Part shown: positions 10,238 to 34,413 of the stretch, one piece after another
Layout of the letters: every line of letters starts with the position of its first letter
Position numbering within the stretch: position 1 is the stretch's first letter
Source: a virus
Lineage: Duplodnaviria; Heunggongvirae; Uroviricota; Caudoviricetes
IMG/VR virus record: IMGVR_UViG_2675903278_000002
Strand: one strand, 5' to 3'
Length of the DNA stretch: 64,000 bases
Notes under the pieces: model-generated
Seen by the model: only the letters and a program-made list of their open reading frames with translations
Told to the model about the DNA's origin: nothing
Database searches by the model: none
Translations under genes and position numbers: made by a program

Positions 10238-10468
10238 ATGTCATACCCGACTAATGTCGTTGCGCTCGTAGAGAGCGATTTTCTGGCCCAGGCCCGTGAA
10301 ATGATGAAAGATCGCGAGCAGGCTTTCAACTTGTACGAATGGGCAATTAAGTGCTTGCATCTTGGGGAGCATCGCGAACTTGTTGAACAGCTTTTAGGTG
10401 AGTTGATTAACGAGGTGTTTGCCTTGAATGTTCAACTACATGGTCGAGAAAATAATCAATCGAAATGA
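10238..10468 (+). CDS. Hypothetical protein
   Basis: ATG 10238 has AAGGA 7 nt upstream. The track start at 10214 remains possible. Confidence 0.45.
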   Translation: MSYPTNVVALVESDFLAQAREMMKDREQAFNLYEWAIKCLHLGEHRELVEQLLGELINEVFALNVQLHGRENNQSK

Positions 10469-10479
10469 TAGATAAGTAC

Positions 10480-10985
10480 AAACTATTCATAAAGTGAATT
10501 GTAAGTGCTAAGATCTGATAGTTTCCAGTCGTAGACTGGAGACTCGACCTGATGGGTGGGGGTAAGCGTCACTGGCGTCAGGTTTAAAAAAGCTCACTAC
10601 CAGCGTAGAACCGGTGCCGTTTAGGTGTCGGGGAAGGGGGAACCAAAGTGAGCGGAGACAAGGGTCACTTTATGATTGTCGAGTCTGGGGTGTTTCGAGA
10701 GGTTGAATCCAGTACTCCCCTTCATAAAGTGTGGGAAGATCTCGGTTCTGGGGTGCTGTCATCCATAACTTCCCAAGTCTAAGCTGGCAGTAGACTTAGG
10801 CCATAACTTTTCAGGTTATGAAACGACCAGGTTGGTGAGGGATTTTTATACTCACCTCCCTGGGAGAGTATTACCTGAAAAGACAACCTCTCACTTCGTT
10901 CGAGGTGAACTTCACTCACTTCGTTCGTTCAGTTCAGGTTTATAAAAACCTGTTCTGGGAAGTAATTTGTTTATTTTAATAATTA
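10480..10985. other. ORF-free, hairpin-dense region (candidate structured ncRNA or origin)
   Basis: No ORF of 60 aa or more in any frame. Long-range pairing AGACTCGAC (10540) with GTCGAGTCT (10678). At least 7 local hairpins. Direct repeats TTCATAAAGTG..AAGATCT x2 and TCACTTCGTTCG x2. Confidence 0.3.
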
Positions 10986-10988
10986 TTA

Positions 10989-11013
10989 ACACGCACGCGT
11001 GTGCGCACGCGCG
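10989..11013. other. 25-nt perfectly alternating purine-pyrimidine tract
   Basis: acacgcacgcgtgtgcgcacgcgcg, which has Z-DNA-forming sequence composition. Confidence 0.6.
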
Positions 11014-11052
11014 AGGAAAAAAATCGGCGCGGCGCTTGATTCAGGAGTTTAT

Positions 11053-11646
11053 ATGACGACGAAGACACCAGCCCGATCGCAAGAAAAAACTCGCAAAAAA
11101 GCCAAAAACAAAAATTCTCCCCGCACCAATTCCACAACGCCTGTCGTAGAGTTCAATCCCCAGCTTAAAACCGTGAAAATCTTCAGTGATGGCTCTTGCC
11201 TTAAAAATCCGGGTGGCCCGGGCGGTTACGGTATAGTTCTCCAGTATCGTGGTGAGGAACGCGAGTTCTCAGATGGTTTTCATAGCACCACCAATAACCG
11301 CATGGAGATGATGGGGGCACTTATCGGGCTGGAGCGTTTGAAATATCCATGCAACGTTATTTTGCACTCTGATAGCCAGTATCTGAAAAACGGCATGACA
11401 CAGTGGATGAAATGGTGGAAACGCAATGGATGGGTGACTTCTGACAAAAAACCGGTAAAGAATGTTGATCTGTGGAAGCGTCTGGATGAGGCTGCAAGTC
11501 GACATAATGTTCGCTGGAAGTGGGTTAAAGGTCACGCCGGGCATCGTGAAAATGAAATATGTGATCGACTCGCGAAGATCGCAGCTTTTTCCGCAGCAGA
11601 TATGCCTCACAAGAAAGATATTGGTTTTGTTTACAACAAGCAGTAA
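11053..11646 (+). CDS. rnhA: Ribonuclease HI with ~40-aa basic N-terminal extension
   Basis: Motifs [35 protein letters not shown] and [13 protein letters not shown] are collinear with E. coli RnhA. ATG 11053 has AGGAG upstream. Confidence 0.9.
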
Positions 11647-11663
11647 GTAAGTGTTTACCTATC
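11643..11663. promoter_or_regulatory. Box B palindrome-family copy
   Basis: GTAAGTAAGTGTTTACCTATC, which includes the rnhA stop TAA. Confidence 0.5.
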
Positions 11664-11791
11664 ATTTTAAATCATGTATCTTATCAGCGTCAGGATGACA
11701 ATGTGTCGGTAAGACACAGTTCCAGGATGGAACGAGAAAGGCGGCTGGCAATCGCCAGCCGCAACTCTTTCTGACACTGGATGGAGTCCAC

Positions 11792-14927: not shown

Positions 14928-16613
14928 ATGAATACAGCCCTTTCCATCATCGACGATGCCAACTCAAACACTGCTATCGACTATCGGCAGGAAATGAACG
15001 TCATCCACGAAATTGTGGCCGAGTGCGAGAAAGAGATCGCCTTCATGTATCAGGTACACGACTTCGTTTATGGCGACGAACGCCACAACATGATTAATCG
15101 CCTGCTGAGACTAAACCATCGACCAGATGAAGATCGCTCGCGTTTAAATCGAGGTTGGTTGGATAAAGTCGATCTGGAATGGGTGAAACAGAATATTTGG
15201 GCCGAGTACTGGAGGAAGGTCACGGACATGACTAACGTTTTGCTGATCATGCCAGCTTCCCGTCGAGATGAGTGGCGCGAGCAGTTTATAGAGGGCAAAC
15301 AGGAAGTCATCAAAACTGACAGAACCGGCTACCAGATGAAGGTTAAAGAGTTCGTTGGTGTACCGGAGTTCAAAGCAGAAACGGTCATACCCACGATGCT
15401 TAATTTGCTGAATGACAGGCACAAATATCTCTCTGAGCGCGTGTATGGCTTGTTTAAGGCGCTGAGTCCTGCGCACAAGACAAATAAGACAAACGGTTTC
15501 AGCGAACGTCTGATAATCGCTGACTGCATTTCTGATTTCTGGCGGGACAGCGTTAGTGTGAACTATCGCAAAGAGGACTATATCGACGATCTGCGTGTCT
15601 TGCTTCATTTCTTCGCGCACAAAGAATTTATTACCATCAACCGCACTGCTGAGGTGCTATCAGCTGCGTATCGGGCAAACGACTGCCAGACCGGTGACTG
15701 GATGAACGTCGATGGAAATCTAATGCGCGTGAAGATGTTCAAGAACGGCAACGTTCACTTTGAAATACATCCTGACGTGGCCTGGAAGTTGAATGAGGTG
15801 CTGGCTTACAGTATGCCTGCTGCAATCCCCGCGCCATGTCGCACCGCGCCAAAAACACGGGCACCAAAGCAGTTCGGGTTAATCCAGAAGACGATCTCCG
15901 TGCCGGTTCGCACTGCGCTTCGTGACGGGCGATTAAGCAAAGACAAAGGCGTATGGTACTTCTCTGATTCAGCTCTCCAGAAGTCGCAGGTGGAAGAGCT
16001 TGAGCGCACACTGAGCTTCATTGGCGGCGTGCAGGAGAAAAAGCACTGGCAGTTCCCGTATGAGATCGGCCATACGCTAAATACGATTGTGGCTACCGGA
16101 TTAATACCGGATACAAAATCACACCAGTTCTACCCTACCCCACGCTTGATTGCTGAGTACGTTGCCAGAGCCACTGAATTGAAGTCTGGTGAGAAGCTGC
16201 TGGAGCCTCAAGCCGGACGTGGGGATCTTCTGGCCTATATCAACGCCGATCTGGAAGATGTTACCTGCATAGAAATCGCACCTCTCTTCGCTGATATCCT
16301 GCGCGGAAAAGGGTATACGAACACGATTTGCTGCGACTTCATAAAGTGGTCTGAGGACAACGTAGGTTATCAGTTCGACAAAATCGTTATGAACCCGCCG
16401 TACTCGCTTGGTCGTCATAGAGAGCACACGCTGGCTGCGCTGGGGCATCTGAAAGTCGGCGGGCGTCTTGTAGCAGTATTGCCGGGCACTGCGCCAATAC
16501 TGGACTGGATGACGATGGATAATTACGTTTATGCCAGAGGGAAGTCGTTTACCAACGAGTTTGAAGACACAGGGATCACAGTCAGCGTATACGTTTTCAA
16601 ACGCGTTAAATGA
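14928..16613 (+). CDS. Two-domain protein: N-terminal domain of unknown function plus C-terminal SAM-dependent amino-methyltransferase (N6-A/N4-C type)
   Basis: Motif I LEPQAGRGDL and motif IV MNPPY in the last ~170 aa. Confidence 0.75.
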   Translation: MNTALSIIDDANSNTAIDYRQEMNVIHEIVAECEKEIAFMYQVHDFVYGDERHNMINRLLRLNHRPDEDRSRLNRGWLDKVDLEWVKQNIWAEYWRKVTDMTNVLLIMPASRRDEWREQFIEGKQEVIKTDRTGYQMKVKEFVGVPEFKAETVIPTMLNLLNDRHKYLSERVYGLFKALSPAHKTNKTNGFSERLIIADCISDFWRDSVSVNYRKEDYIDDLRVLLHFFAHKEFITINRTAEVLSAAYRANDCQTGDWMNVDGNLMRVKMFKNGNVHFEIHPDVAWKLNEVLAYSMPAAIPAPCRTAPKTRAPKQFGLIQKTISVPVRTALRDGRLSKDKGVWYFSDSALQKSQVEELERTLSFIGGVQEKKHWQFPYEIGHTLNTIVATGLIPDTKSHQFYPTPRLIAEYVARATELKSGEKLLEPQAGRGDLLAYINADLEDVTCIEIAPLFADILRGKGYTNTICCDFIKWSEDNVGYQFDKIVMNPPYSLGRHREHTLAALGHLKVGGRLVAVLPGTAPILDWMTMDNYVYARGKSFTNEFEDTGITVSVYVFKRVK

Positions 16614-21302: not shown

Positions 21303-22403
21303 TCACACTGCGCGGAATGCGATTTCGCCAGGTATTACTTCACCTTGCCAATACATTTGGGCAGCAACGCGATCTGCGAGGTCACGATAAATAGCCGTAA
21401 ATTCGCTATCTGGACGACTAATAACGGTTGGTGTTCCGTTATCCAGATCTTCACGAAGAGAGATATGAAGTGGCATTTGGCCTAACAACTGCGTGTTGTA
21501 TTTCTCGGCCAGTTTCTGTGCGCCACCGGTGCCAAAAATTGGCTCGTGATGACCGCAGTTACTGCAAATATGCACACTCATGTTTTCGACGATACCCAGT
21601 ACCGGCACTTCGACTTTTTCGAACATCACAATGCCTTTCTTCGCATCGATCAGCGCGATGTCTTGCGGCGTAGTTACCACAACCGCACCAGTTACAGGAA
21701 TGTTCTGCGCCAGCGTCAACTGAATATCACCAGTGCCCGGCGGCATATCGAGAACGAGATAGTCCAGATCAGGCCATAGAGTTTCCTGCAACATCTGCAT
21801 CAGCGCCTTGCTGGCCATCGGTCCACGCCACACCATTGCATTGTCGTCGGTGACCAGATAACCAATAGAGTTGGTTGCCAGGCCATGAGACATGATAGGT
21901 GCCATGTGAGTACCGTCCGGTGAGGTTGGACGTTGGTTTTCCGCGCCCAGCATGGTTGGAATTGATGGACCATAGATATCGGCATCCAAAATACCAACTT
22001 TCGCACCTTCAGCAGCCAACGCCAGTGCCAGATTTACCGCCGTGGAGGATTTACCTACGCCGCCCTTGCCTGAGCTGACGGCGATAATGTTCTTAACGCC
22101 ATTAATGCCTGGTTGGTTTTTGACGCGCTTAAGCGTGGCAATGTTGTACGACAGCTTCCAGTCAATAGCCTTTGCGCCAGTGATACGGAGCAGATCACCA
22201 CTACATTGCTCTTTCAGGTCTTCAAAAGGCTTATTCCACACGAAAGGCATGATTAGTTCGACATGCAGTGTGTCATCCATCAACGCAACATGGTGTAACG
22301 CTTTAAGCGTAGTCAGGTTGTGTTTCAGGGTTGGGTGCTGAAAATTAGCCAGCGTACCGGCTACCATTGCTCTCAGGGCATCCGGCGATTTGGACTCGCT
22401 CAT
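21303..22403 (-). CDS. mrp: Fe-S cluster carrier ATPase Mrp/ApbC (host-type)
   Basis: 366 aa. Nearly collinear and identical to E. coli Mrp as I recall it (AVSSGKGGVGKSS, CSNCGHHEPIFG). Confidence 0.95.
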   Translation of the reverse strand: MSESKSPDALRAMVAGTLANFQHPTLKHNLTTLKALHHVALMDDTLHVELIMPFVWNKPFEDLKEQCSGDLLRITGAKAIDWKLSYNIATLKRVKNQPGINGVKNIIAVSSGKGGVGKSSTAVNLALALAAEGAKVGILDADIYGPSIPTMLGAENQRPTSPDGTHMAPIMSHGLATNSIGYLVTDDNAMVWRGPMASKALMQMLQETLWPDLDYLVLDMPPGTGDIQLTLAQNIPVTGAVVVTTPQDIALIDAKKGIVMFEKVEVPVLGIVENMSVHICSNCGHHEPIFGTGGAQKLAEKYNTQLLGQMPLHISLREDLDNGTPTVISRPDSEFTAIYRDLADRVAAQMYWQGEVIPGEIAFRAV

Positions 22404-22560
22404 CCCGTCTCCTTTATTTTAATTTGCGCAATTGTCGCCTTGTAGTGTACTCCAGCTACGACATTTAATCATTTATGAGAAATGCTGTTATCACATGGCA
22501 GACATAAGGCCATTTTGTTACTATCAAGCCCCTTTTCACTACAAAGAAGTAATGCCTACT

Positions 22561-24594
22561 ATGACCCAAGTCGCGAAGAAAATTCTGGTGACGTGCGCGC
22601 TGCCGTACGCTAACGGCTCAATCCACCTCGGCCATATGCTGGAGCACATCCAGGCTGATGTCTGGGTTCGTTACCAGCGAATGCGCGGCCACGAGGTTAA
22701 TTTCATCTGTGCCGACGATGCCCACGGTACGCCGATCATGCTGAAAGCACAGCAGCTTGGTATCACACCGGAGCAGATGATTGGCGAAATGAGTCAGGAA
22801 CACCAGACTGATTTCGCAGGCTTTAACATCAGCTATGACAACTATCACTCGACGCACAGCGAAGAGAACCGTCAGTTGTCTGAGCTTATCTATACTCGCC
22901 TGAAAGAGAACGGTTTTATTAAAAACCGCACTATCTCTCAGTTGTACGACCCGGAAAAAGGCATGTTCCTGCCGGATCGTTTTGTAAAAGGCACCTGCCC
23001 GAAATGTAAAGCGCCAGATCAATACGGCGATAACTGTGAAGTCTGCGGCGCAACATATAGCCCGACTGAATTGATCGAGCCGAAATCGGTGGTTTCTGGC
23101 GCTACCCCGGTAATGCGTGATTCCGAACACTTCTTCTTTGATCTGCCTTCTTTCAGCGAAATGTTGCAGGCATGGACCCGCAGCGGCGCGTTGCAGGAGC
23201 AGGTGGCGAACAAAATGCAGGAATGGTTTGAATCCGGCCTGCAACAGTGGGATATCTCCCGAGATGCGCCTTACTTCGGTTTTGAAATTCCGAACGCGCC
23301 GGGCAAATATTTCTACGTCTGGCTGGACGCGCCGATTGGCTACATGGGTTCCTTCAAGAATCTGTGCGACAAGCGCGGCGATACCACCAGCTTCGATGAA
23401 TACTGGAAGAAAGACTCCACCGCCGAGCTGTACCACTTCATCGGTAAAGATATTGTTTACTTCCACAGCCTGTTCTGGCCTGCCATGCTGGAAGGCAGCA
23501 ACTTCCGCAAGCCGACCAACCTGTTTGTTCACGGCTATGTGACGGTGAACGGCGCGAAGATGTCCAAGTCTCGCGGCACCTTTATTAAAGCCAGCACCTG
23601 GCTGAATCATTTTGACGCCGACAGCCTGCGTTACTACTACACTGCGAAACTCTCTTCGCGCATTGATGATATCGATCTCAACCTGGAGGATTTCGTTCAG
23701 CGCGTGAATGCCGATATCGTGAACAAAGTGGTTAACCTGGCCTCCCGTAATGCAGGCTTTATCAACAAGCGTTTTGACGGCGTGCTGGCAAGCGAACTGG
23801 CTGACCCGCAACTGTACAAAACCTTTACTGATGCCGCTGAAGTGATTGGCGAAGCATGGGAAAGCCGCGAATTTGGTAAAGCTATCCGTGAAATCATGGC
23901 ATTGGCTGACCTGGCTAACCGCTATGTCGATGAACAGGCTCCGTGGGTGGTGGCGAAGCAGGAAGGACGCGATGCCGATCTGCAGGCGATTTGCTCTATG
24001 GGCATTAACCTGTTCCGCGTGCTGATGACGTACCTGAAGCCGGTACTGCCGAAACTGACTGAACGTGCAGAAGCATTCCTGAATACAGAACTGACCTGGG
24101 ATGGTATCCAGCAACCGCTGCTGGGCCATAAAGTAAATCCGTTCAAGGCACTGTATAACCGCATCGATATGAAGCAGGTTGAAGCACTGGTGGAAGCATC
24201 CAAAGAAGAAGTGAAAGCCACAGCCGCACCGGTAACTGGCCCACTGGCTGACGACCCGATTCAGGAAACTATCACCTTTGACGACTTCGCCAAAGTTGAC
24301 CTGCGCGTGGCGCTGATTGAAAACGCAGAGTTTGTAGAAGGTTCTGACAAACTGCTTCGCCTGACGCTGGATCTCGGTGGTGAAAAGCGTAATGTCTTCT
24401 CAGGCATCCGTTCCGCTTATCCAGATCCACAGGCACTGATTGGTCGTCACACCATTATGGTGGCTAACCTGGCACCACGTAAAATGCGCTTCGGTATCTC
24501 TGAAGGCATGGTGATGGCTGCTGGCCCCGGCGGGAAAGATATCTTCCTGTTAAGCCCGGATGCTGGTGCTAAACCTGGCCACCAGGTTAAGTAA
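22561..24594 (+). CDS. metG: Methionyl-tRNA synthetase (host-type, full length)
   Basis: 677 aa from ATG 22561 ([25 protein letters not shown]..., KMSKS). Only scattered substitutions relative to E. coli K-12 MetG as I recall it. The track ORF start at 22432 is upstream read-in. Confidence 0.97.
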
Positions 24595-33419: not shown

Positions 33420-33944
33420 TCAAAAAGGCAAAATTCGTTCAACCCAATCGAACAAAACAACTATTTTTCTACCGTTCTCGACACGTAGTGTAACCTGACA
33501 AGCATCTGCGCCTGCTGACACCCCCTCAATTTCACGGCCATCCGCCATGTACACCCTTATAGATTTGTTTGCTTTGTAGGCTTGGTTGCAAATTGCAAAA
33601 AAATCGCGGCGTGATGGCCGATTATCGACATAATCAGGGTGAACTGTTAGTCGACCTTTGAAATCGTGAGCGATACTGTCAACCACACCTGATTCAATTG
33701 TACTAATGCGTTCAAGTGGGAGCCTTATACGATTTTCTTTGTCAAAAGGGGCTGGGCAAAGGTCAACTTTGTTACGAGATGGCATGAGGCCATAAACGTA
33801 CATGCAAAACGCCTGGCCATCTTCGAGAGTGACCCTTACAGGAATTTGTTCTCTGCGCCAGAACATCAGTAGTTTTTCAACGTTAGTGTAATCTCGCGGC
33901 CAGAGTTCAGCTTGGATACCGTAGGTAATATCTTTGGTTGTCAT
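33420..33944 (-). CDS. Hypothetical protein (two beta-rich halves, possibly Sm-like)
   Basis: Start uncertain (33944 or 34022). Segments VRVTLEDGQAFCMYVYG and IRVYMADGREIEGV...VTLRVENGRKIVVLFDWVERI. Confidence 0.45.
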   Translation of the reverse strand: MTTKDITYGIQAELWPRDYTNVEKLLMFWRREQIPVRVTLEDGQAFCMYVYGLMPSRNKVDLCPAPFDKENRIRLPLERISTIESGVVDSIAHDFKGRLTVHPDYVDNRPSRRDFFAICNQAYKANKSIRVYMADGREIEGVSAGADACQVTLRVENGRKIVVLFDWVERILPF

Positions 33945-33948
33945 ATCA

Positions 33949-34413
33949 TCACAGAGTTGTTGGCAGAATGTCGATGTCACCAGAATTGCTGGTAAACACC
34001 CTGAACGCTTTTGTGTCTCCATTCTTCAGAGTCGTTTCTCGCTCTTGACGAGCGGGGTTTAGAGCACATAAACCTGCACCTTCAAGAGATGCACCCACAA
34101 TTAATTCTCCGGCATTTAAATGGAAAGTCGCTTTTTCGCCTGTAGCCAGTTTTGCGACAGTTTCGCCGTTGATGAAAATGGAAGCATCACATCCAGCTCC
34201 TACAAAACCTGTGTCTCTCATTACCACCAACGTAGCTGGCGCTGCGCTTTGATACTTGAACACTTTGGCCTGCGGTGCTGGTTTGGCGTCATGGATTGAT
34301 ATTGGGTGTGATTGGCACGCGGCAAGCATCAACACTGGTAACGTTAGTAGAGGGAGAAGCGAGTATTTCATGATAGTTTTAGAACAGAAAGTGAACAGTA
34401 TGGGAGACTTCAT
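33949..34413 (-). CDS. Lipoprotein
   Basis: Lipobox LPVLMLAA-C. GGGAGA SD lies before ATG 34413. Confidence 0.6.
   Translation of the reverse strand: MKSPILFTFCSKTIMKYSLLPLLTLPVLMLAACQSHPISIHDAKPAPQAKVFKYQSAAPATLVVMRDTGFVGAGCDASIFINGETVAKLATGEKATFHLNAGELIVGASLEGAGLCALNPARQERETTLKNGDTKAFRVFTSNSGDIDILPTTL

Follow-up and report, generated by a model that had tools for sequence, protein, structure and literature searches.

The 64,000-nucleotide (nt) stretch of viral DNA that we analyzed (IMG/VR record IMGVR_UViG_2675903278_000002, called the window here) represents most of an Escherichia coli SSU5-like phage-plasmid. A 585-bp gap precedes its RNase HI gene, rnhA, and is the biggest within ~13 kb in annotated relatives. 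This gap (10469 to 11052) holds an RNA element that we named E1 (window 10486 to 10965), and the combined evidence establishes E1 as a plus-strand, promoter-bearing, structured, and abundant noncoding RNA (ncRNA) under unusually strong constraint. Over positions 10300 to 11200, identity is 97 to 98% with the phages PhiR41_1, CMS-2020a, and Cyrano and 83% with Salmonella phage SSU5; plasmid NZ_CP020118 is 100% identical over 10469 to 11052.

The gap lies in a plus-strand block of nucleotide metabolism and replication genes that includes nrdAB, thymidylate synthase, dihydrofolate reductase, a DnaQ-like exonuclease, Dam, and RNase HI. Always located 5' of the RNA is a plus-strand gene for a helical protein of 76 amino acids (aa) (phrog_5343; 10238 to 10468), for which the fold was uninformative and neither sequence nor fold comparison gave a significant PDB match; it is weakly expressed in lysogens. 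An 84-aa open reading frame (ORF) upstream of the gap has a stop codon that ends at 10468. Downstream, rnhA (11053 to 11646, plus strand) encodes a 197-aa RNase HI (Pfam RNase_H, E = 1.6e-44), as the initial annotation of this region had proposed; its ATG is at 11053 and not at 11054, and a 215-aa ORF that begins at 10999 is a mere upstream extension of the same gene. Between the stop at 10468 and the ATG at 11053, we confirmed the earlier claim that there is no ORF of at least 60 aa in any frame. The longest ORFs within 10469 to 10998 have 46 aa (10779 to 10919, minus strand) and 44 aa (10648 to 10782, plus strand).

We gathered 87 distinct copies of E1 from PLSDB, INPHARED, IMG/VR, metagenomes, and GTDB genomes. 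Identity was calculated in 100-nt windows against SSU5, pHCM2, pKPHS1, and plasmids of Cronobacter, Enterobacter, and Salmonella Concord. Positions 10569 to 10968 showed 81 to 99% identity (91 to 99% in six of the seven relatives) versus 65 to 80% for the flanking protein genes, and E1 was the best-conserved stretch over 16 kb against each of the three divergent relatives compared. Conservation begins sharply at ~10543 and ends at ~10965; across this segment, relatives show 89 to 99% identity. Within the core of the element (10655 to 10892), 177 of 238 positions are invariant in the 87 copies, including 55 of the 84 positions predicted to be unpaired. The few substitutions in E1 track the clades set by the flanking genes, a pattern consistent with vertical inheritance and purifying selection.

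One copy of E1 is present in each of 687 PLSDB plasmids and likewise in 232 of the 5,426 complete E. coli genomes (~4%); the PGAP annotation of 233 E. coli records leaves E1 blank. When GTDB genomes, metagenomes, and IMG/VR were scanned by pattern, only SSU5-like elements and their remnants were retrieved. There was no partial chromosomal match to E1 in the 5,426 E. coli genomes (E ≤ 1), and phages with 38 to 49% identical RNase H had ORFs directly upstream of that gene and no nhmmer match to E1. A search of the 111-kb genome, comprising the window and the remaining 47 kb, found no sense or antisense match to E1 elsewhere, only chance matches of 11 to 14 nt, so long antisense pairing does not appear to be its mode of action. 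A chromosome contig of Buttiauxella gaviniae (L009 4782 to 6188) carries a degraded phage-plasmid remnant from which the promoter and the 5' domain are gone; a deletion of ~15 kb fuses the SbcD-like metallophosphoesterase gene of the phage-plasmid to the RNA core, and a 387-aa ORF reads into the RNA. The core as the C terminus of a 387-aa protein was ruled out, since this copy is a deletion remnant. A 49-kb Klebsiella "plasmid" taken as a candidate mini-replicon is actually an incomplete linear contig.

E1 is preceded by a sigma-70-type promoter on the plus strand, with a −35 hexamer TTCATA (10486 to 10491) and a −10 hexamer TAAGAT (10509 to 10514) preceded by TGc. The −35 element is kept in all 46 distinct upstream sequences, each of which has the pattern TTNNNN and TANNAT separated by 17 nt (16 nt in one lineage). 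The −10 variants are TAAGAT, TAAAAT, TAGAAT, TACAAT, TAATAT, and TAGGAT, and T1, A2, A5, and T6 are invariant in an eight-lineage alignment. The promoter pair always lies 32 to 35 nt before the conserved core, in surrounding sequence that is only 51 to 65% conserved. From the promoter spacing, the RNA is predicted to start near 10520 to 10521. Immediately downstream is a 5' terminal stem-loop, UUUCCAGUC-GUA-GACUGGAGA (10522 to 10542, plus strand), that forms a hairpin in every lineage. Its sequence is unrelated between lineages yet always pairs, with seven of eight pairs changed on both sides, and its G-U pairs are consistent with the plus strand only. A GATC site, found in the E. coli lineage only, overlaps the −10 hexamer (TAAGATC, 10509 to 10515), and another lies at 10737 to 10740. 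With a phage Dam gene two genes upstream, the GATC at the −10 hexamer makes methylation-sensitive transcription possible.

RNAalifold, applied to 16 nonredundant copies, predicted 132 pairs, 14 of them with compensatory changes. In the alignment of 87 copies, 97.7% of the cells can pair, versus 35 to 50% when the 3' partners were slid. Both partners have changed in 16 pairs; the slid controls gave 5 to 9 such pairs and shuffles 10.9 ± 1.0, with none of the 500 shuffles reaching 16. Counted by cells, such double changes number 234, versus 26 to 88 in the slid controls. When the alignment is read as the plus strand, 97.7% of the structure is paired, compared with 86.1% for the minus strand. G-U cells number 1417 and A-C cells 50, an excess that points to an RNA read from the plus strand. 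The predicted plus-strand fold has an energy of −166 kcal/mol (z = −4.2; 0 of 100 dinucleotide shuffles were as stable); the minus-strand fold has a similar z-score and is 28 kcal/mol less stable. Conservation and covariation, which the initial annotation had suggested as tests of this region, were thus both positive for RNA. We conclude that E1 is almost certainly a genuine structured RNA.

The helices best supported by covariation are 10546-54/10576-84, 10592-98/10647-53, 10666-75/10722-31, 10777-86/10791-801, and 10935-40/10947-52. On the plus strand, the 5' domain (10543 to 10654) is composed of P2 (10546-61/10567-84), an A-rich linker, and P3 (10592-98/10647-53), and this domain is 77 to 91% identical across clades. 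Three P2 pairs switch from A-U to G-C or from C-G to U-A in 21 to 24 sequences, and at one P3 pair, 42 sequences have U-A, 27 have C-G, and 18 have U-G. P3 is the nested pairing of GCTCACT (10592) with AGTGAGC (10647) that had been noticed from the sequence at the outset, and it encloses a plus-strand hairpin at 10611 to 10631 and a G-rich stretch, GGGGAAGGGGGAACC (10631 to 10645). The near-invariant core that follows (10655 to 10892, plus strand) is closed by pairing of GAGA...GGU (10655 to 10665) with ACC.UCUC (10886 to 10892). Its proposed plus-strand helices are P5 (10666-75/10722-31), P6 (10681-89/10708-17), P7 (10732-38/10769-75), P8 (10777-86/10791-801), and P9 (10807-20/10869-82 plus 10827-39/10851-63). 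Compensatory changes occur in P5 and P8, and a multibase replacement of the 3' strand of P6, GAATCCAGTAC to GTGTTCCCAGC, leaves that helix able to pair. Seven core helices never vary, and with several alternative pairings available, the core fold is a thermodynamic proposal only. Candidate pseudoknots would pair 10697-705 with 10884-92 and 10769-75 with 10955-61. Two plus-strand hairpins complete the element at its 3' side (10893 to 10965): P10 (10897-908/10916-27), which forms on the duplicated CUCACUUCGUUCG and is invariant, and P11 (10928-32/10955-59 and 10935-40/10947-52), which covaries, with the variants CAGGTTT/AAACCTG, CAGGGG/CCCTG, and CAGGGA/TTCCTTG. Conservation stops at GGGAAGUAA, and the 3' end of the RNA probably lies near 10960 to 10985.

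All of the structural features listed in the initial annotation were present at the positions given there. The local hairpins at 10525 to 10539, 10779 to 10797, 10803 to 10821, 10834 to 10855, and 10935 to 10952 could each be located, although that at 10803 to 10821 (CATAAC/GTTATG) competes with the longer invariant helix 10807-20/10869-82. The direct repeats TTCATAAAGTG (10486 and 10721) and (C)TCACTTCGTTCG (10890/10915) were also found; the first copy of TTCATAAAGTG...AAGATCT is in the promoter, 5' of the predicted RNA start, and occurs in the E. coli lineage only. A proposed long-range helix fared less well. AGACTCGAC (10540 to 10548) does complement GTCGAGTCT (10678 to 10686) at nine of nine positions, but covariation backs local helices instead. 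Every one of the 87 copies can still form the inner six pairs (CTCGAC/GTCGAG), but only the E. coli lineage can form the outer 3 bp. Positions 10547 and 10548 covary with 10583 and 10582, and GAGTCTGGG (10681 to 10689) pairs locally with 10708 to 10717, even where that partner has undergone a multibase replacement.

Between E1 and rnhA is an A+T-rich spacer (10966 to 10988, delimited by column conservation) of variable length and sequence, which is T-rich in most lineages and not in the Klebsiella clade. It is followed by an alternating G+C tract and a G+C hairpin around AGGAAAAAAAUCG (~11003 to 11034), together spanning 10989 to 11034 on the plus strand, directly 5' of the rnhA ribosome-binding site. 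The perfectly alternating purine-pyrimidine part measures 25 nt (10989 to 11013), exactly as first described. Folding predictions for 12 lineages gave this hairpin in nearly every case. Conservation of the tract is moderate; pHCM2 is missing 9 nt of it, and a Kluyvera locus (L011) that has lost rnhA still carries it.

Published strand-specific RNA sequencing (RNA-seq; GSE154648) is available for Cyrano, a 97%-identical phage-plasmid in E. coli LF82, where the 44-aa ORF within E1 (10648 to 10782, plus strand) is annotated as the coding sequence CYRAN_81 and reads were counted over it. In five conditions with two replicates each, the log2(fpkm + 5) values, where fpkm is fragments per kilobase per million reads, were 6.82/6.92, 9.34/9.02, 6.94/6.89, 8.97/8.23, and 10.35/10.3 for CYRAN_81 (Misson et al. 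2023, PMC9928086, Table 1 and S1 Table). The corresponding values were 3.1 to 5.8 for the upstream gene CYRAN_80 and 2.6 to 5.0 for CYRAN_82, which is rnhA (PMC9928086). The E1 segment is therefore 10 to 40 times more abundant than both neighbors in lysogens, which indicates that it has its own promoter and that most of the RNA stops before rnhA. Its level and pattern resemble those of the phage repressor. A large structured ncRNA, one of two possibilities raised in the initial annotation, is thus strongly supported by the promoter in all lineages, covariation on the plus strand only, conservation, and RNA-seq of lysogens.

We compared what lies downstream of E1 in 96 distinct contexts. In 14 of them, rnhA is missing or replaced, and E1 is intact in all. 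The substitutes are an insertion sequence (IS) element, a 222-aa membrane protein, an HNH protein, a GmrSD type IV restriction enzyme, a Zn-ribbon protein, an LprI-domain lipoprotein, and two opposite-strand genes. Judged from these gene orders, E1 sits at the fixed border of an accessory-gene hotspot, of which rnhA is the commonest occupant and not an obligatory partner. Retention of E1 where rnhA is replaced suggests that E1 is not merely an rnhA leader, and it weakens both that reading and the idea that the phage RNase H processes an E1 primer. The cargo slot itself corresponds to window positions 11053 to 11790, with equivalents in loci L011, L124, L133, L139, L143, L263, L265, and L282.

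In a sister clade of ~30 Klebsiella phage-plasmids, the same position is occupied by 581 bp free of ORFs, whose sequence does not align with E1. We named this region E2 (L220 2348 to 2928 in Klebsiella plasmid OW968253; also L221 to L224 and L297 to L303). The neighbors of E2 are related to those in the window, with 50% identity between the two versions of the 76-aa upstream protein, which is found before both RNA types, and 51% identity for RNase H. In E2 we found a sigma-70 promoter, a 5' hairpin that covaries, a fold z-score of −7.7, 11 compensated pairs among eight sequences, and a large domain closed by a long-range helix. It ends in a covarying intrinsic terminator followed by T7-8, which marks E2 as a discrete, released RNA of ~430 nt. 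Of the five E2 loci examined, two have rnhA replaced and still keep E2. Searches of IMG/VR with the upstream protein found only the E1 and E2 RNA types. The two cannot be aligned and their profile hidden Markov models do not cross-match; they may be diverged homologues or analogues.

E1 is a new family of large structured RNA that matches no catalogued family. Rfam 15 (4,227 models, including C4, RNAI, riboswitches, group I and II introns, RNase P, tmRNA, 6S, GOLLD, ROOL, OLE, HEARO, and ToxI) gave no match at gathering thresholds in the whole window. At E ≤ 10 on 10300 to 11200, matches were at chance level only, the best scoring 21 bits against a gathering threshold of 56 (a hepatitis C virus element). 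ARAGORN found no tRNA or tmRNA, and the literature that we searched contained no description of the E1 RNA. What E1 has in common with structured ncRNA in general is strand-specific compensatory changes, its own promoter, and a detected transcript, the invariant core helices excepted.

Several known systems resemble E1 in part. Like the P1/P7 c4, N15 CA, and P4 CI immunity RNAs, E1 is constitutive in lysogens and transcribed from a promoter that precedes early or lytic genes, with expression held low farther downstream; P1 and N15, like SSU5, are phage-plasmids. E1 is five times larger than the c4/CI RNAs, which at ~70 to 90 nt are matured by RNase P and base-pair with short repeats of their own transcript. 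There was no match to the Rfam C4 family (presumably accession RF01695) at E ≤ 10 and no antirepressor consistently downstream, the genes there encoding function-unassigned, TerB-like, or membrane proteins. A type III toxin-antitoxin system of the ToxIN kind would likewise combine a promoter, an abundant RNA, partial termination, and a downstream nuclease gene on a plasmid or phage expressed in the carrier state. Antitoxins of that type are ~36-nt tandem repeats, which E1 lacks, and what follows E1 is RNase HI or other cargo and not a ToxN-family endoribonuclease. Tandem Repeats Finder detected no arrays, and the only repeat is a single 13-nt duplication with copies 25 nt apart. GOLLD, ROOL, OLE, and raiA are several hundred nt long, multidomain, strongly conserved, often phage-borne, and without a known partner. 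E1 has no similarity to them, its hosts are Enterobacteriaceae and not Firmicutes or other groups, it is smaller than GOLLD and ROOL, and it is bound to one phage-plasmid lineage and one genomic position. We also considered a CsrB-like sponge and rejected it, as the eight GGA motifs in ~440 nt (counted by eye) are roughly what chance would give.

How E1 acts is harder to say, and we lean slightly toward a stand-alone gene for a trans-acting RNA of ~450 nt. The sigma-70 promoter drives a plus-strand transcript in lysogens, whose fold consists of a protective hairpin at the 5' end, a 5' domain, a 238-nt multihelix core with a long-range closing helix, and two 3' hairpins. In the trans-acting model, most transcripts would end before the next gene, releasing a ~450-nt species. 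The folded RNA might then act in the plasmid state on a conserved protein or another RNA, whether as its partner, its scaffold, or a decoy, or it might be a catalyst; candidate roles are lysogeny or plasmid maintenance, immunity, and control of the neighboring accessory-gene slot. A number of points weigh against a trans-acting RNA with this fold. E1 has no canonical intrinsic terminator in a consensus scan. The RNA-seq counts span only 135 nt of E1, and the transcript ends are inferred. Most core helices are invariant, so about half of the proposed structure comes from thermodynamics alone, and several invariant alternative pairings exist. The Cyrano copy is a mosaic that joins an E. coli-type 5' end to an SSU5-type core; this is recombination inside E1, and the apparent conservation may therefore partly reflect homogenization. 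Finally, a cis-acting attenuator would explain just as well why most cargo is co-oriented and why the leader is plentiful but the message after it is scarce.

Such an attenuator, leader, or riboswitch-like sensor for the slot gene, by default rnhA, in which transcription in lysogens would mostly halt at the end of E1 and a signal would refold mutually exclusive pairings and admit RNA polymerase or ribosomes downstream, is a credible if rather unlikely alternative. It would account for the excess of E1 over rnhA in all conditions, for the co-orientation of most replacement cargo (the 222-aa, HNH, GmrSD, Zn-ribbon, and LprI-domain proteins), and for the terminator of E2, which has an upstream A-tract. 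The invariant repeats CUCACU (three copies) and UGGGAAG (two copies) and the complementarity of GAGAGGUUG to CAACCUCUC permit alternative folds, and the G+C hairpin lies immediately before the rnhA ribosome-binding site. Against a leader, the element is intact where the next genes face the opposite way (L011, L282, and the E2 loci L221 and L223) or where an IS follows, the spacer between the conserved RNA and the next start codon is variable at 90 to 110 nt, the size and near-invariance of E1 exceed those of known leaders, and no riboswitch or leader in Rfam matched even at E ≤ 10. That E1 instead encodes a small protein, either the 44-aa CYRAN_81 or a peptide of ~14 aa from a GUG at 10648, is extremely unlikely. 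Most copies keep the ORF open, the first 14 codons occur in 87 of 87 (one lacking a start codon), and a strong Shine-Dalgarno-like run, AAGGGGGAA, lies 6 nt upstream. Nevertheless, the 44-aa frame is shifted or truncated in 28 of the 87 distinct copies while the nucleotides downstream remain conserved, and substitutions in the first codons are mostly nonsynonymous and follow the RNA pairing. There is no Pfam or PHROG support, and conservation runs 300 nt past the ORF on both sides. We therefore rejected CYRAN_81 as a conserved protein gene.

The other possibility raised in the initial annotation was an RNA-primed origin tied to the adjacent RNase HI. Here, an RNA like ColE1 RNA II would form an R-loop near the A+T spacer, G+C tract, and A7 run (10966 to 11022), and an RNase HI cut would prime DNA synthesis. 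The precedent is real, as extrachromosomal mycobacterial prophages of cluster A have ncRNA regions of 400 to 500 bp that are expressed in lysogens and act as origins (Wetzel et al. 2020, PMC7157519). E1 resembles these and RNA II in being a structured RNA of ~0.4 to 0.55 kb (~0.45 kb for E1) that an extrachromosomal element expresses from a constitutive promoter while it is a plasmid or prophage, and in lying near replication functions. E1 itself is within the replication-gene block, usually with RNase HI next to it; it also contains G5 runs, and an A-run lies downstream. A preprimer-like RNA from a constitutive promoter is not, however, specific to the ColE1 family, and the remaining evidence makes an origin quite improbable. 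Unlike ColE1, which replicates without a plasmid-encoded initiator, the E1 plasmid has a RepA replicon elsewhere, with repA at 84,665 to 85,720 of NZ_CP020118, 18.5 kb from E1 (MOB-suite type IncFIB), although it might carry a second replicon. The same RNA is found across plasmids of different replicon types, which is unexpected for a copy-control RNA. In a consensus scan, a weak test, there was no minus-strand promoter inside 10520 to 10965 for an antisense RNA like RNA I; the nearest minus-strand site (10527 to 10498) points away. E1 shows no sequence or Rfam similarity to these origin RNAs, GC skew has no inflection at E1, the would-be origin region is the least conserved part, and the functional analogue E2 ends in an intrinsic terminator that would release the RNA. 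The dispensability of rnhA argues against a link to the phage RNase HI, though host RNase HI could stand in. A Rop-like role for the 76-aa upstream protein was also rejected: its model is all-helical, yet there was no significant PDB match. We therefore regard the claim of an RNase HI-linked origin as unsupported. A DNA-level element with incidental transcription, for example a lytic origin, single-strand initiation site, protein-binding array, or recombination anchor for cargo swaps, is very improbable. The adjoining accessory-gene hotspot, the short direct repeats, the mosaic Cyrano copy, and extreme conservation that includes unpaired positions could be read that way. The compensatory changes and the tolerance of G-U on one strand only (1417 versus 50) are instead an RNA signature, the promoter is conserved and the transcript abundant, the other border of the hotspot, a 164-aa gene, is not homogenized (40 to 78% identity), and there are no iterons, tandem repeats, or extra copies.

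More speculatively, E1 and E2 might be the RNA part of a new phage-plasmid module, a reading that we hold only tentatively. The RNA would be either a hotspot-edge sensor that gates swappable effectors (RNase HI, GmrSD, HNH nuclease, and membrane proteins) in response to a signal such as superinfection, or a trans-acting catalytic or ribonucleoprotein RNA needed for the plasmid-prophage lifestyle. If true, either version would be an RNA class without a described counterpart in Enterobacteriaceae. Clinical E. coli, Klebsiella, Salmonella, and Enterobacter commonly harbor SSU5-like phage-plasmids, which carry resistance and defense genes, and large, intricately folded RNAs without a known function are rare in these heavily studied bacteria. 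E1 is better conserved than almost any neighboring gene, yet it is unannotated or called a hypothetical protein. It offers a testable handle on the control of lysogeny, copy number, or accessory-gene expression, with Cyrano in LF82 and PhiR41_1 in MG1655 as tractable systems, and its addition to RNA family databases would end its misannotation as a coding sequence.

We made several additional observations on the genes of these phage-plasmids. The N-terminal ~37 residues of the phage RNase HI (window 11053 to 11165) form a Lys/Arg-rich extension outside the Pfam domain that, unlike the catalytic part, has only 47 to 62% nucleotide identity to all relatives beyond the E. coli lineage. The "Rnase H" coding sequence in the SSU5 RefSeq record (L002 6606 to 7370) has an overlong N terminus that runs back across the G+C tract; the conserved ATG is at window position 11053. 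The only nearby gene that approaches the conservation of the RNA is 14928 to 16613, which encodes a 561-aa DUF4942 protein annotated in SSU5 as a DNA methyltransferase and shows 83 to 93% nucleotide identity versus ~75% for its neighbors. At 21303 to 24594, a full-length methionyl-tRNA synthetase gene (720 aa, plus strand) is divergent from a gene for an Mrp/ApbC-type ATPase (365 aa, minus strand), a pair that we take to resemble the chromosomal metG-mrp arrangement and that is presumably captured host cargo. A 200-aa protein encoded at 33420 to 34022 on the minus strand matches the Pfam "repressor of phase-1 flagellin" (FljA-like, E = 2e-84), which is unexpected on a phage-plasmid. In the same RNA-seq data, the top value on Cyrano belongs to CYRAN_43 (OV696614, 40268 to 40822), a 555-nt "hypothetical protein" gene between the glutaredoxin and integrase genes that is expressed 723-fold over the prophage background and is apparently missing from NZ_CP020118. 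CYRAN_43 could be another ncRNA or a very strongly expressed moron.

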